Below are positions 1,491 to 6,771 of a stretch of 64,000 nt of DNA, one piece after another (positions within the stretch are counted from its first letter, which is position 1; each line of letters begins with the position of its first letter). The notes below the pieces were generated by a model. The model saw only the letters and a program-made list of their open reading frames with translations, did no database searches and had not been told where the DNA came from. The translations under genes were made by a program, and so were the position numbers. Origin of the DNA: Verrucomicrobiota bacterium (lineage in GTDB: Bacteria; Verrucomicrobiota; Verrucomicrobiia; Opitutales; Seribacteraceae); the NCBI GenBank assembly GCA_027622665.1, contig JAQBYT010000008.1, positions 1-64,000 on the forward strand, read 5' to 3'.

Positions 1491-2321
1491 ATGCCACCTT
1501 CGCCATCCAGTCCATGGGAAGCCCTTAGGGCAGGATTTCGCAGAGCCTGCGTCAGGCGTTTAGTAGGTGACGAGGAAGGCGCGATAGCCGTGCTAAGGGA
1601 TGAAATTCCCGGACTAGTGGTGGGTTGGGCTAAAACCTCGTCTCTCGAAGCACCCGAAAAGAAGGCCAAGCTCAAAGAGGTTTTTGACGATGAGTCCGGA
1701 CGCGCCGACGAATTGGCGGTAGCCTTTGATCTTTTTGCCGCGAGGTTCGAAACCAAAGTCGCCGATCACGTATCCCGAGAAGTAAAAAAAGCTAGGGCAG
1801 AACTGGTTGCGGTATCTAATAAAATTGAGGAAGCCCTCGCGGATTTTTCCCAGAGAATCGATAGGTTCCCAACCGGAAATCAACCCACGCATACCGTTCC
1901 CGTATTCGAACCGTCTCCAATTGCAGAAGAGGCGACCACGCAAGAACCCGAACCTTCCAGACCTGAGATTGAGATAGAGGAAGAATCCGTACCGGAACCC
2001 ACTTCGGTCGAAGTAACTTCCGAGCCTGAAACCAAACCTTCCGAATCCGAGTCCCAAGATGACCCGGAACCTGAACCAGAGGCGGAACTCCTGCTCACGC
2101 CCGACCCGAAAGTTGAACTGGAGGTGGAACCCGAATCCGTACCAACGGCAAAGCCGAAAAAGGAACCGAAAAAGGAACCGAAAAAGGAACCGAAAAAGGA
2201 GGCGGAACCTGAACCTGAACCCGATTCTGATCTCGCTGAAACCCCGCCTGTAACTCCGCGAGGTATTCGTTTCGACGACATTGAGGGAATGATCGACGAA
2301 TTGCTTGCTCAAGAAGAGTAA
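1491..2321 (+). CDS. Hypothetical acidic protein: helical N-terminal domain, long Glu/Pro-rich disordered linker with PKKE repeats, short C-terminal acidic amphipathic helix
   Basis: 276-aa ATG-started ORF co-oriented with its neighbours; E/P-dominated from about residue 130; ends RGIRFDDIEGMIDELLAQEE. Confidence 0.8.
   Translation: MPPSPSSPWEALRAGFRRACVRRLVGDEEGAIAVLRDEIPGLVVGWAKTSSLEAPEKKAKLKEVFDDESGRADELAVAFDLFAARFETKVADHVSREVKKARAELVAVSNKIEEALADFSQRIDRFPTGNQPTHTVPVFEPSPIAEEATTQEPEPSRPEIEIEEESVPEPTSVEVTSEPETKPSESESQDDPEPEPEAELLLTPDPKVELEVEPESVPTAKPKKEPKKEPKKEPKKEAEPEPEPDSDLAETPPVTPRGIRFDDIEGMIDELLAQEE
2154..2201 (+). repeat. In-frame 12-bp tandem repeat (CCGAAAAAGGAA) x4 encoding (PKKE)4
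   Basis: Three perfect copies at 2154, 2166 and 2178, plus a fourth at 2190 with 11/12 identity. Confidence 0.95.
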
Positions 2322-2428
2322 CACAATGAAAGGCAGGCAAAAGTTATTCACATCCTCAAGTTTTCGTTGCCAAGAACTTTTGTTTCGCAAGCCTATCCGC
2401 ATCCCAATGTTTCAAAAGTTAGCGAAAA

Positions 2429-3586
2429 ATGGCTCAACAAATGACGATGGACAATATATCTCCAACCACTGAGGAAAAAACCGTGCCCAAGACTAAACCC
2501 ACTTCCGCCTCCAAAACCGCCAAAGGCAAAAAGACAATGTCTCTTGGCCTCGATCTGGGGACCCTTTTTTCCTGCTACGTCAACAAGCTCCCCAAGCCTG
2601 ATTCCGATGACTCGGGTGCAACGATCATTCCCTCGGTAGTCGGTTATGCGGAGGAGGGGATACTCTCCGGAATCCTTCCGGGTAACAACTCCACTCTTTT
2701 CGGTGATGATGCATTGGCCAACGAATTGCATCTTCGACTAGCCCATCCTCTATCCGATGGGATAGTCAGCGACGTTGATTCCGCTAATCTTTTCTTAAAG
2801 CACATCCGCTCACAGATGGACCCTGAAGGAAGTTCGGAAGTTCTCGTTGTAATCGGGGTGCCGGCGGTTGCTGATTCATCGGCCAAAGACAATTTGAAAA
2901 AGGCTGCCAAGGGGGCATTCGACGGGGTGCTTTTTATTCCTGAGCCCTTTTTGGCAGCCCTTGGACACCGAGACGAAAGTCGTTTGGACGATCCCGACTA
3001 TCAGGATCCTGTGGCAAACTCGCTTTTTATCGACGTGGGTGCCGGTACAACTGACTTTTGCATCGTTCAAGGATATTTCCCAAAACCCGAAGATCAGTTA
3101 AGTATTCCTTTCGCAGGTAACGAGATAGATGCTATCTTGGACAAGTCGATTCGCGAAGCATACCCCGAGGTGGATTTGCCGCTTTCCATGATTCGCAAGT
3201 TCAAGGAAGAATTCTCCTATGTCGGGGAAATTGAATCCGGAGCCCGGGTGAAGGTTCCCGTGGAAGGTAAGCCCCGCAAAATCGAGATCGGCAAATTGGT
3301 GGGAGAGGCTTGCAACGAGCTATTGCGAGAAACTTTGGAGTCAACTAGGAAAATCATAGCCACTGCTTCTTCACAGTCCGTATTTTCGCTATTGCAGAAT
3401 ATTATCCTAACCGGTGGGGGGAGTCGAATCCGCAACTTTGCCCAAGAGTTGCAAAAGCTACTGCTGGAGGACGGCTATGAGAACCCTTTGGTCACTGTGG
3501 CCGCTCGTGAAAGCAAGCCTTTCGTGGCTCTTGGAGCAATGAAAGTGGCTCAGGCCGCGCGTGATGATCAATGGATTCGCCCCTAG
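2429..3586 (+). CDS. Bacterial actin, MamK-like subfamily
   Basis: Actin ATPase motifs GLDLGT, DVGAGTTD and LTGGGSRIR, plus MamK-type segments SVVGY, HPLSDG, VIGVPA, EPF, PEDQ, AGN, KEEFSYVG, GKP, LQNI and a near-terminal Trp. Confidence 0.88.
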   Translation: MAQQMTMDNISPTTEEKTVPKTKPTSASKTAKGKKTMSLGLDLGTLFSCYVNKLPKPDSDDSGATIIPSVVGYAEEGILSGILPGNNSTLFGDDALANELHLRLAHPLSDGIVSDVDSANLFLKHIRSQMDPEGSSEVLVVIGVPAVADSSAKDNLKKAAKGAFDGVLFIPEPFLAALGHRDESRLDDPDYQDPVANSLFIDVGAGTTDFCIVQGYFPKPEDQLSIPFAGNEIDAILDKSIREAYPEVDLPLSMIRKFKEEFSYVGEIESGARVKVPVEGKPRKIEIGKLVGEACNELLRETLESTRKIIATASSQSVFSLLQNIILTGGGSRIRNFAQELQKLLLEDGYENPLVTVAARESKPFVALGAMKVAQAARDDQWIRP

Positions 3587-3621: not shown

Positions 3622-4566
3622 TTAGATTATGCCTTTTAAGGTATTGCCGACCCGTTCGAGGGTTTGCTCTAGTTCGACGAGTAGGTGTTCGGTTTCCTTC
3701 TCGTTTTTTTCGCCGAAAAGAATGCCCCAGCCTGATACATCCGTCCAGTTCTCGCGCGGTATGGGCTTGTTCCGTTCGATACCGGGAATCCCTGCCGACT
3801 GCACTAAGACGTCTCCCAATTGGGCGGCCGCGGCAAGCTCGGAGTGGTGCGGAGCCGAATACGGGTCGTTATGCCATTGAGCGGTTTCGACGATCTCACG
3901 AGCGATATGATGATTCCAAAGGTAAAAAGCCCCCATCTTGGCATGATCCCATCCCAGGAGTGAACGCTCCAAATCGCAGAATTCCGCCGCATCCTTGTAA
4001 GAGCGCTCGTAAATTCGGCTGAACTCGTCGGGAAACGTTACGGCCATTATGATTTTTCCTAGGTTGTGAAGCAAACCAGCCACGTAATCGCTCTCGTCCT
4101 TGCATTGAAAGTCTGCGATAACTAAAATCTCTCGCGTGAGTATGGCAGTGCCGATGCTGTGCTTCCAGAAATCAACCCAATCCAAGCTTTTTGCGGATTT
4201 TCCCAAGTCTACGATATCTTCAATGATCGGTGTAGCGATAATTAGCTCATTAATCCGATTTAATCCGAGAAAAAGAGCCGCCTCCTCGACACCTTTTATC
4301 TGTTGCTCATCGGGGCTGCCGAAGAAAATGGAATTAACCAAATCCAGAACTCTTGTCGTTAACGAGGGATCCAAGCGAATGACTTCTGCAATTTGGGCGA
4401 CAAAACTTTCTTCTGAGTTTAGAAGGGAGCTCAGCGTCTGATTGATGCTTCTTAGGGAGGCGAGCTTGGGGCACTGGTTGATTTTCTCTATAACCAAGAA
4501 GTCCGAAATGGGTCTTTGCGGACTGGCGCCCGACTTTGCGGAGGCGATTTCTTTGGAAGAGACCAT
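3622..4566 (-). CDS. Stand-alone HDOD domain protein
   Basis: IAEVIRLDPSLTTRVLDLVNSIFFG, AALFLG, FWKHS, AGLLHNLGK, DHAKMG...W...WHNDP. Confidence 0.9.
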   Translation of the reverse strand: MVSSKEIASAKSGASPQRPISDFLVIEKINQCPKLASLRSINQTLSSLLNSEESFVAQIAEVIRLDPSLTTRVLDLVNSIFFGSPDEQQIKGVEEAALFLGLNRINELIIATPIIEDIVDLGKSAKSLDWVDFWKHSIGTAILTREILVIADFQCKDESDYVAGLLHNLGKIIMAVTFPDEFSRIYERSYKDAAEFCDLERSLLGWDHAKMGAFYLWNHHIAREIVETAQWHNDPYSAPHHSELAAAAQLGDVLVQSAGIPGIERNKPIPRENWTDVSGWGILFGEKNEKETEHLLVELEQTLERVGNTLKGII

Positions 4567-4588
4567 CGCCAGTGGAGACCTGTAGAAA

Positions 4589-5050
4589 TCAGGCCTTCAG
4601 TAAGGTTTCTCCAGGTCGATCTGGGGACATGTCACGACCGAGGAAGTTGGAGAGATCCAAATAGTCGCTGAGCAATTGGGCTCCGCCTGAATCAGGTGCA
4701 AGCGTCAGACTCTGCCCATTAGTTGCTCTCAGCACCAAATTGCCTTCCGGCGTACGCCTAGCGTAAAACTGGGAGTCGGGATTGTTCGCCATAAAGGCTG
4801 ACACTGCAGGATCGGCAAACAATTCGGTCTTTAATTGGTTTCGGATTACGCCGGCATCCTCGACGTTCTTGATGCCGAGACGATCGAACATCGGACTAGA
4901 CTCGGGTGAACCTTTCACCTTTTCCGCATTCGACAACATACCGTCAAAAGCCTTGGAGTCAGCTGGTTCTACTTCGGGAGTTCCACGAAAAGCCGACTGA
5001 ATAAAGTCCTTGCCGAGTGTCACTAAACTGGATGCTAATATAGGATTCAT
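4589..5050 (-). CDS. Hypothetical protein
   Basis: Likely start ATG 5050 (MNPILASS...), about 35 bp downstream of a sigma-54-like promoter; 22 bp gap to the HDOD gene. Confidence 0.7.
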   Translation of the reverse strand: MNPILASSLVTLGKDFIQSAFRGTPEVEPADSKAFDGMLSNAEKVKGSPESSPMFDRLGIKNVEDAGVIRNQLKTELFADPAVSAFMANNPDSQFYARRTPEGNLVLRATNGQSLTLAPDSGGAQLLSDYLDLSNFLGRDMSPDRPGETLLKA

Positions 5051-5082
5051 GGCGTAACAGAAGAAAAGATACACGAATCCCA

Positions 5083-5098
5083 AGCAAGTTCAGTGCCG
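5083..5098 (-). promoter_or_regulatory. Sigma-54 (-24/-12) promoter
   Basis: Minus strand reads CGGCACTGAACTTGCT, matching YGGCAC-N5-TTGC with exact GG-N10-GC spacing, in the intergenic gap upstream of ATG 5050. Confidence 0.7.
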
Positions 5099-5191: not shown

Positions 5192-6217
5192 TTAGAGCAC
5201 GCGAAGCAGGTTTTGCTGGATCAAAAGTTCTGCGATTTGCACGGCGTTTAGTGCCGCACCTTTCCATAACTGATCACCTACTGCCCATAGAGCCAGACCA
5301 TTCTCAAAGACTTGATCCAATCGAAGTCTTCCCACGCCGCAGGCTTCTTTCTCGGTATAATCGAGGGGCATCGGGTACCTTAAGGCATTGGGGAGGTCCC
5401 ATAATTCCGTGCCGTTAAAAGCTTCGATTGCCGCGTGGGCGTCGGGAACGTTTACCGGATGCTTAAATGCAGCGTTAAGCGACATGGCATGCGCCCGCAT
5501 CACGGGGACCCTGACGCAAGTGCAAGAAACTTTGAGCCCGGAAAGATCCATGATTTTGCGACTTTCGTTTCGCATCTTAAGCTCTTCCTTGGTGTAACCA
5601 TCCTCCCTAAACTCATCGATGTGAGGGATTAGGTTGAATGCGATGGGATGAGGAAACACTTCCGGAGGCACTTGTTCGCCGCCGCCAAGAACTGAGCGAG
5701 CTTGGTTTTCCAGTTCCGCAACTCCGCTCGCCCCTGCACCTGAGACTGCTTGGTAGGTGGAGGCAAAGAAATGTTTTAGCCCAAATCTCTTGTGCAAGGG
5801 ATACAACGCCATGAGAGCCACGATCGTAGAGCAATTGGGATTTGAGATAATCCCCTTGTGCTTTTCCACTGAACTCGGATTGATTTCAGGGATAACCAGC
5901 GGAACGGTAGGTTCCATCCGAAAAGCCGAGCTATTGTCGATGACAACGCAACCATGCTTGCGGGCGTCTTCCGCGAATTGCTTGGAAATACTTCCTCCTG
6001 CGCTGAAGATGGCGAAATCAAGTCCCTTGAAGGCATCGGGCGTAGTCTCGCGCACAGTTTCGAGATTCCCGCAAGCCTTGTACTCGCGTCCTGCGGATCG
6101 AGAGGATGCGAGCAAACGCGTCTCCGCAACAGGAAACTCTCGCAATTCAAGTAAACGAATGATTTCTTGACCCACGGCGCCTGTGGCTCCTACGATACCT
6201 AATCTATATTTTTTCAA
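5192..6217 (-). CDS. asd: Aspartate-semialdehyde dehydrogenase
   Basis: GIVGATGAVG, DNSSAFRM, NPNCST (catalytic Cys), STYQAVSGAG, CVRVPV, DQLWKGAALNAVQIAE; TTG start. Confidence 0.96.
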   Translation of the reverse strand: MKKYRLGIVGATGAVGQEIIRLLELREFPVAETRLLASSRSAGREYKACGNLETVRETTPDAFKGLDFAIFSAGGSISKQFAEDARKHGCVVIDNSSAFRMEPTVPLVIPEINPSSVEKHKGIISNPNCSTIVALMALYPLHKRFGLKHFFASTYQAVSGAGASGVAELENQARSVLGGGEQVPPEVFPHPIAFNLIPHIDEFREDGYTKEELKMRNESRKIMDLSGLKVSCTCVRVPVMRAHAMSLNAAFKHPVNVPDAHAAIEAFNGTELWDLPNALRYPMPLDYTEKEACGVGRLRLDQVFENGLALWAVGDQLWKGAALNAVQIAELLIQQNLLRVL

Positions 6218-6771
6218 TGGACGAAACGAGTTTGTTTGAAAGGTTGCAAAAAAAAAGCGCGGTCCTCGGGGTGGATCAGCCTTTCATTGGGTTGATCGCC
6301 TCGATTCCCGAACAGAAACTATGTTTATTCGTGGACGGGACAAGATTGAAGGAGTACGTCATGTCAAGTTCTAAGAGATCACCCTCATGCGAGGCAAACT
6401 CTCTTGGAACCCCTTGGGGCTTGCACGAAGTTTGTGAAAAAATCGGGAGCGATGCCGTATCGGGTATGGTGTTCAAGGGTCGCAAGCCTACGGGAAAAAG
6501 ATACTGTGAATATTCGAACGAAGAGCAGGCGAAAAATTTAATCACCAGTCGAATACTTCGACTACGCGGATTGGAAGACGGTGTCAACGCGGGGGGAAAC
6601 AAGGATACTTTTTCACGTCACGTCTATGTCCATGGAACTAACCACGAGGAGGCCGTAGGTTCTCCGGCCAGTTCAGGTTGTCTCCAGTTGAAAAACATAG
6701 ATGCAATCGAGCTCTTCGATTCAGTCCCGGTGGGGACTTTTCTTTTAATCAACAATGGGCAATATCCTTGA
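6217..6771 (+). CDS. L,D-transpeptidase (YkuD family)
   Basis: TPWG and the YVHGTNHEEAVGSPASSGC catalytic His/Cys motif; start codon uncertain. Confidence 0.85.
   Translation: MDETSLFERLQKKSAVLGVDQPFIGLIASIPEQKLCLFVDGTRLKEYVMSSSKRSPSCEANSLGTPWGLHEVCEKIGSDAVSGMVFKGRKPTGKRYCEYSNEEQAKNLITSRILRLRGLEDGVNAGGNKDTFSRHVYVHGTNHEEAVGSPASSGCLQLKNIDAIELFDSVPVGTFLLINNGQYP

Follow-up and report, generated by a model that had tools for sequence, protein, structure and literature searches.

A BeeR-clade actin encoded with a conserved partner

We analysed two adjacent genes in a 64,000-nucleotide stretch of DNA from a Verrucomicrobiota bacterium of the order Opitutales (contig JAQBYT010000008.1, positions 1 to 64,000; the window), and found that an actin which its sequence places in the BeeR clade is encoded directly downstream of a partner protein that probably binds it, an arrangement shared by nearly all genomes of the order that hold both genes. 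The two frames lie on the same strand with a gap of 107 bp, as the initial annotation had reported: the BeeR-associated partner gene P0002 (1491..2321, + strand, 276 aa, single copy in the genome) is followed by the beeR-clade actin-like ATPase P0001 (2429..3586, + strand, 385 aa). The actin family is already known, and the new part is the upstream partner. As a tentative reading, to which we give slightly less than even chances, the pair would form a two-gene cytoskeletal module in which a BeeR-clade actin works with a cognate end-binding adaptor that controls how it assembles and links the filament to an anchor in the cell.

P0001 is, judged by sequence, a BeeR-clade protein and neither MamK nor MreB. 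It scored 497.3 bits with the NCBIfam model of BeeR (NF053558, cut-off 530 bits), 226 bits with that of MamK (NF040964, cut-off 400) and 49.7 bits with that of MreB (cut-off 293), and its best match in the PDB was 8R2N (362.7 bits, E = 2.4e-107), with MamK at 146 bits. It also shares 49% identity over 348 residues with the protein of a second locus, L020, which is itself identical to residues 33-386 of 8R2N. In a maximum-likelihood tree from a quick search (the careful one being unfinished), made of 49 BeeR-like and 7 MreB rows with no MamK row, the 49 BeeR-like rows formed one clade (SH-aLRT 100) that holds both P0001 and the 8R2N-identical protein, and P0001 fell outside MreB. All ten actin motifs listed at the outset were found, the sole Trp stands at position 382 of 385, and none of the three MreB motifs is present.

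Among the proteins of non-magnetotactic Verrucomicrobiota, BeeR has been described as the one most closely related to MamK; its role is unknown, it forms a three-stranded tubular filament solved at 3.1 Å (PDB 8R2N), and its hallmark is an unstructured N-terminal extension of 30-50 residues (PMC11929497); the same paper describes neither a BeeR partner nor the gene neighbourhood. P0001 likewise carries about 35 Thr/Lys-rich, low-complexity residues before its first actin strand (2429..2533, + strand, delimited by composition), lacks the MamK cross-strand loop (a 5-residue gap against MamK in the alignments), has a 12-residue insert at residues 180-191 (2966..3001, + strand) that is found in BeeR and appears as a gap in MamK, and shares with the 8R2N actin the same upstream partner gene. 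The insert residues Arg181 and Tyr191 are invariant in 49/49 sequences; the insert adjoins the predicted partner site described below, and Arg181 lies within that predicted interface. With a BeeR score far above the other two, the MamK loop gone and the BeeR insert there, identity as MamK was rejected, as was identity as MreB, since the true mreB lies on another contig. The proposal that the actin is a new system is thus not supported, as it belongs to a published clade.

P0001 also differs from the 8R2N protein. Its score falls under the BeeR equivalog cut-off, as happens with 27 of the order's 39 strong matches, and we therefore file it as a divergent BeeR-clade sub-lineage and not as an equivalog. 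At the 12 cross-strand positions of PMC11929497 it has 1 identical residue, 4 conservative replacements, 6 changes and 1 absence (Leu385), so that with 7 of 12 positions non-conservative or absent the three-stranded tube is not assured in its lineage. Across the 49 sequences Gln380 (8R2N numbering) is invariant and most of the other named cross-strand residues vary, which runs against the statement in PMC11929497 that these residues are mostly conserved; for two residues named there, Arg252 and Asn380, the deposited 8R2N sequence has His and Gln.

Among the genomes searched, BeeR is patchy and confined to one order. In a sample of 301 genomes of the phylum, strong matches came from this genome and from 18 of the other 62 in the order, with none in the 238 genomes outside it; in a set of 251 genomes of the order, 39 had a strong match.

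The partner gene accompanies beeR across genomes

The two-gene module supposed in the initial annotation proved to be conserved. None of the three outcomes named there as refuting the proposal was seen: the actin falls outside MreB, the pair is syntenic, and no mam set turned up in the genome search described below. Strong matches to the partner (E <= 1e-12) were obtained in 37 of the 251 genomes of the order, 35 of which also hold beeR, while 210 hold neither gene; the partner is thus present in 35 of the 39 BeeR genomes, and in 34 of these 35 it lies directly upstream of beeR on the same strand. In the phylum sample 18 of 19 BeeR genomes have it, against 0 of 282 others, although most of these 18 had contributed to the partner profile; outside the building set of profile A1, 23 of 27 BeeR genomes carry it. 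When a profile grown from the N-terminal domain (residues 1-125) had converged, it matched P0002 and 28 further frames, all of them directly upstream of beeR, and none of the rest among 5565 frames. The partner is also encoded upstream of the actin identical to 8R2N (L020).

Individual genomes add to this picture. In G231 and G485 the frame upstream of beeR retains the C-terminal motif of the family, with an N-terminal domain that is barely recognisable and a weak match to the whole profile (E = 0.006 and 0.004), and the locus of G465 stops at a contig edge. G258 holds a further beeR, accompanied by a partner copy of its own (L076:5136-6890), and this second BeeR groups with the proteins of G180 and G213, distant from the first copy of the same genome, which suggests that the pair moves as a unit. 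In G321 (L069:5718-6290) an intact partner N-domain frame runs into a 22-residue beeR-like remnant and a stop; the remnant is weak (E = 0.013), and this 2-contig genome has no intact beeR, which gives the impression of a decaying locus. We had considered it as a partner losing its C-terminal motif after loss of BeeR, but it looks like one deletion removing both, which makes it no independent evidence, and it was dropped. Five weak matches to the N-domain profile (E 0.001-0.01) were excluded from the counts. Three of them are sigma-28-like proteins (L089:2479-3375, L090:2351-3181 and L091:1645-2460; E about 0.001-0.005), in which the match lies between regions 3 and 4 and probably reflects helical composition.

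The partner is conserved at its two ends

The partner belongs to an undescribed family without a Pfam or NCBIfam model. Among 1.84 billion representatives clustered at 50% identity, 531 clusters belong to it; none of the Pfam or NCBIfam families recurs in more than 1 of 143 members, P0002 itself matches neither library (which may lack a MamJ model), and the 4 named members among 8 clusters looked up are called "hypothetical protein". The literature searched, which did not extend to subscription journals, the preprint's supplementary figures or the patent cited in it, contained no description of the partner or of the BeeR gene order, and only the two versions of the BeeR paper were relevant in it.

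P0002 begins with a three-helix domain (residues 7-86, with helix 3 extending to residue 125; 1509..1865, + strand), delimited by profile and by an AlphaFold 2 model in which residues 1-125 have a pLDDT of mostly 91-98 and helices span 8-24, 28-49 and 54-125. A hypervariable Glu/Pro-rich linker follows (residues 126-258; 1866..2264, + strand; pLDDT 49-60, disordered), and the protein ends in an amphipathic helix (residues 259-276; 2265..2318, + strand; 261-275 in the AlphaFold 2 model), a predicted BeeR-binding motif delimited by pattern conservation. The protein had been described as dominated by a repetitive Glu/Pro linker. This holds for residues 126-258, which make up 133 of the 276 residues and contain 32 Glu and 29 Pro, and fails for residues 1-125, a charge-balanced helical domain with 23 Asp or Glu and 21 Lys or Arg. 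The only true tandem repeats in the gene are a 12-bp unit in 3.9 copies (2154-2200), which codes for a Lys-rich, non-acidic stretch, and a 6-bp unit in 2.8 copies; linker indels between close strains fall at 2126-2233.

Throughout the family, conservation rests with the N-terminal domain and the C-terminal helix and leaves out the linker. Glu68 and Arg71 of the N-terminal domain are conserved in at least 90% of sequences. Of the 150 best representatives, 132 carry the C-terminal pattern I-x-D-[LFM]-[IL]-D-x-M-L, whereas shuffled tails give 5.8 on average and 14 at most; the figure is tuned on the data, since the pattern was widened after a first, narrower version had given 83 of 150 against a shuffled mean of 0.85. 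Linkers range over the loci from 12 to 172 aa and from 0 to 36% Asp plus Glu; in the 132 motif-bearing members the median is 39 aa, with 8% Asp plus Glu and 38% Pro plus Ala, and only 12 of the 132 reach 20% Asp plus Glu. The acidic, MamJ-like composition is therefore mainly a trait of this marine lineage, and the view that the acidic repeat is the mark of a protein like MamJ is not supported, as in most members the linker is short, Pro/Ala-rich and non-acidic. Partner frames of 572-601 residues occur in family f2 (L084:7779-9494, L094:3115-4917 and L095:1514-3229), where a long helical, coiled-coil-like middle lies between the same N-terminal domain and C-terminal motif.

Searches for the fold of the N-terminal domain with Foldseek, VIA-align, a PDB profile search and the ESM Atlas gave nothing significant, a result that proves neither a new nor a known fold. 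With Foldseek, no hit to either of two models reached E <= 0.001 (best E 0.85 and 1.2); as to a likeness to MIT/TPR-like helical domains, the best Z scores were 7.9 and 8.1, in a range common for helical bundles. Sequence and structure searches gave no match to DNA-binding families.

The C-terminal helix is predicted to dock on BeeR, probably in a groove

The upstream protein had been put forward as a likely filament partner, and both its co-occurrence with beeR and a predicted docking speak for this. When actin residues 33-385 (one subunit) were folded together with the C-terminal 33 residues of the partner (244-276), the complex reached an ipSAE of 0.64, against 0.01 for the best of three controls (0.00-0.01). 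In the benchmark for this score, 116 of 157 solved complexes attained the mark, as did 2 of 215 mismatched pairs; these figures apply only roughly here because our own alignments were used. The prediction runs share at least 38% of their contacts, and the pLDDT of the partner is at least 54.

On the partner side the predicted interface consists of residues 259-261, 264-265, 267-272 and 275, of which Ile264, Met267, Ile268, Leu271 and Asp269 would touch actin residues 168-170, 174, 178, 215-217, 372-378, 381 and 383. The helix is thereby placed between the strand before the PEPF motif, the GYF hairpin and the C-terminal helix of BeeR, a site which we take, going by actin numbering, to be the hydrophobic groove of subdomains IA/IIA. 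Of the 19 actin residues at the interface, six do not vary among the 49 sequences, and the mean conservation of the interface is 0.80 versus 0.65 overall. The predicted contacts also include actin residues 150 and 381, which correspond to Glu149 and Gln380 of 8R2N, both at positions listed among the cross-strand contacts (PMC11929497).

The hydrophobic groove of actins is bound by ParR, arcadin-2, thymosin and WH2 (PMC5173319, PMC9178275), and the C-terminal peptide of ParR overlaps the polymerisation interface of ParM and binds only the barbed end (PMC9178275).

A filament-end adaptor as the favoured mechanism

In the mechanism that we favour, the C-terminal amphipathic helix of the partner would dock in the BeeR groove at a site that appears to overlap the filament contacts. 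Because the counterparts of 8R2N Glu149 and Gln380 belong to this site, and because ParM and crenactin use the groove as a polymer interface, the helix would have access only to monomers or to an exposed filament end. At such an end it would steer assembly, and the flexible spacer would link this end to what is bound by the N-terminal helical domain, in the way that ParR works for ParM; that the anchor would be a pole- or envelope-associated site is a guess. An end-binding adaptor is favoured since a second conserved domain sits on a spacer of variable length. A more specific form, in which the partner would be a dedicated end-binding factor that anchors or follows the end of a rigid BeeR filament and couples it to a fixed structure such as the flagellated pole, seems to us rather doubtful.

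The resemblance to ParM-ParR lies in an actin with an adjacent adaptor that has a folded N-terminal domain and a groove-binding C-terminal helix, the last being a prediction in our case (for ParM-ParR, PMC9178275 and PMC5173319). The differences are that the BeeR pair lies among housekeeping genes and that its partner has an N-terminal domain without DNA-binding match; the likeness is one of working mode only.

Several points weigh against this mechanism. The prediction covers only the C-terminal 33 residues against one actin subunit, and its high score may reflect mere likeness to similar complexes that have been solved (ParM:ParR, crenactin:arcadin-2 and actin:thymosin; PMC5173319). The conservation of the interface may reflect the fold or the filament contacts and not partner binding, and a pure sequester would fit the same predicted site just as well. 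Nor did any gene for a cargo turn out to be linked to the pair or to track strictly with it. Moreover, beeR occurs without a detectable partner in G309 and G317, which are sister branches, and G315 holds beeR and the partner unlinked, so that BeeR can persist without an adjacent partner. The loci of G309 (L074:5869-7029) and G317 (L073:5460-6812) come from small genomes (1.8 and 1.3 Mb) on long branches, both of which have FlgI and CheR.

Alternative roles of the partner

A role in which the partner would occupy the same groove as a monomer sequester or depolymeriser, in the manner of arcadin-2 or thymosin beta-4, and would set the free BeeR pool without any cargo, is unlikely but deserves to be taken seriously. 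Synteny and predicted interface would be equally the same, and the predicted contacts at residues 150 and 381 fall on listed cross-strand positions. A model is the archaeal crenactin-arcadin-2 complex (PDB 5LY3), in which the last 17 residues of a small cognate regulator form a helix in this groove and depolymerise crenactin through it (PMC5173319). In a preprint, BeeR by itself did not depolymerise over about 12 h (bioRxiv 10.1101/2023.11.07.565980), and a disassembly factor would fit with such stability. Crenactin, however, belongs to another actin family, the activity of arcadin-2 was measured whereas that of the BeeR partner is read from sequence and prediction, and a PDB profile search detected no homology to arcadin-2. 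What speaks for an end-binding adaptor instead is that a separate conserved N-terminal domain and a spacer of 12-172 aa (much longer in the 572-601-aa frames) look like a two-ended tether.

Alternatively, the two genes might only share an operon or pathway, their products never touching and the C-terminal helix folding on its own N-terminal domain or on a third protein, which we regard as quite unlikely. Three structural matches of the P0002 model span from residues 3-6 to residues 273-276, a hint that the C-terminal helix is placed next to the N-terminal domain, and amphipathic helices dock readily in actin grooves in predictions. No spanning match, however, was obtained for the deeper, short-linker model (pTM 0.57), the controls stayed at 0.00-0.01 against 0.64 for the pair, and the motif is retained beside beeR in the two genomes (G231 and G485) in which the N-terminal domain has diverged.

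The initial proposal of a MamJ-like acidic adaptor, which would align an organelle (a microcompartment, a granule or a chemosensory array) along the side of the filament, now appears improbable. MamK is the nearest other actin family, the partner gene lies just upstream of the MamK-related actin, and in MamJ the N- and C-terminal regions contact MamK around a dispensable Glu/Pro repeat (PMC3905215). The acidic linker is not a family trait, however, reaching 20% Asp plus Glu in only 12 of 132 members, and the 88-residue motif and tandem 20-residue Glu-Pro copies of MamJ are unmatched in P0002, which has only 12-bp and 6-bp repeats. Furthermore, MamJ is predicted to be mostly unstructured (PMC3905215) whereas the partner has a folded helical N-terminal domain, and along the filament's side the predicted site would be expected to be hidden. 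The analogy with MamJ thus appears to survive only as architecture.

The organelles proposed as cargo do not support a MamJ-like adaptor either. In a hand-picked set of 40 BeeR-positive and 40 BeeR-negative genomes, whose kin are not independent, bacterial microcompartment (BMC) shell genes occurred in 18 of 40 versus 20 of 40 and CheR in 21 of 40 versus 19 of 40, so that neither tracks with BeeR, and neither had a match in this genome or in 8 other members of its family tested. Microcompartments and chemosensory arrays were accordingly rejected, and flagella are only loosely associated: in the same set FlgI was found in 32 of 40 BeeR-positive and 11 of 40 BeeR-negative genomes (within family f4, 11 of 15 versus 6 of 11) and is missing from 8 BeeR genomes, two of them single-contig, which gives a hint of a flagellar association of the pair. 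This genome has FlgI, as have the 8 other family members. A search of the genome for gas vesicle protein, made without a positive control, gave no match.

It is extremely improbable that P0001 is either an mreB that has diverged or a mamK displaced in a magnetotactic bacterium, as MamK, although the nearest other family at 226 bits, scores far below BeeR, no mam marker was found, and a full mreB-mreC-mreD cluster lies on a separate contig, C53. In line with an actin annotated away from any magnetosome island, models of MamA, MamB, MamI, MamK, MamM, MamP and magnetochrome gave no match over the cut-off in the whole genome (93.5% complete), in a search that had no magnetotactic control, that did not run MamE and MamQ with models of their own and whose MamI and magnetochrome models were without positive control; the MamB and MamM (CDF transporter) models had zero matches here, yet matched in 13 of 14 control genomes.

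Neighbouring genes and expression

Across 29 wide loci only the beeR-partner pair recurs over the order, with no third gene; pseudouridine synthase, HDOD and asd genes are linked to it mainly within the marine lineage. In the window, beeR adjoins genes for an HDOD-domain protein, a family-less protein of 164 residues and an L,D-transpeptidase-domain protein (3622-5083 on the - strand and 6217-6771 on the + strand), neighbours that recur in nine marine-lineage loci only. Immediately upstream of the partner in seven f4 loci (L030, at 435-806, and L020, L022, L023, L026, L027 and L028) lies a small gene whose product has an N-terminal coiled-coil-like helix, a C-terminal hydrophobic segment and no Pfam match, and which is a possible membrane anchor in that family.

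Part of the stretch occurs in 20 RNA runs. In all four runs examined, contigs cover parts of both genes, and in two of the four a contig bridges the intergenic gap; since the RNA contigs also cross the convergent neighbour and DNA carry-over is possible, these data show neither transcription nor an operon. A scan for promoters and terminators gave nothing above chance.

Implications for BeeR biology

The genome sample replaces the picture of a BeeR "conserved in the phylum" by that of a trait scattered through a single order, and the partner gene gives a direct route to its role, requiring a short peptide and an already purified protein. If the predicted binding is true, the partner would be the first BeeR regulator in the literature searched and a further case of convergence on the actin hydrophobic groove, and its N-terminal domain would become a bait for the cargo. 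If, in addition, it binds the filament end and couples it to a fixed cell structure, the pair would be a chromosomal positioning or force-bearing machine peculiar to the Opitutales, and the second independently evolved bacterial user of this groove after ParR.

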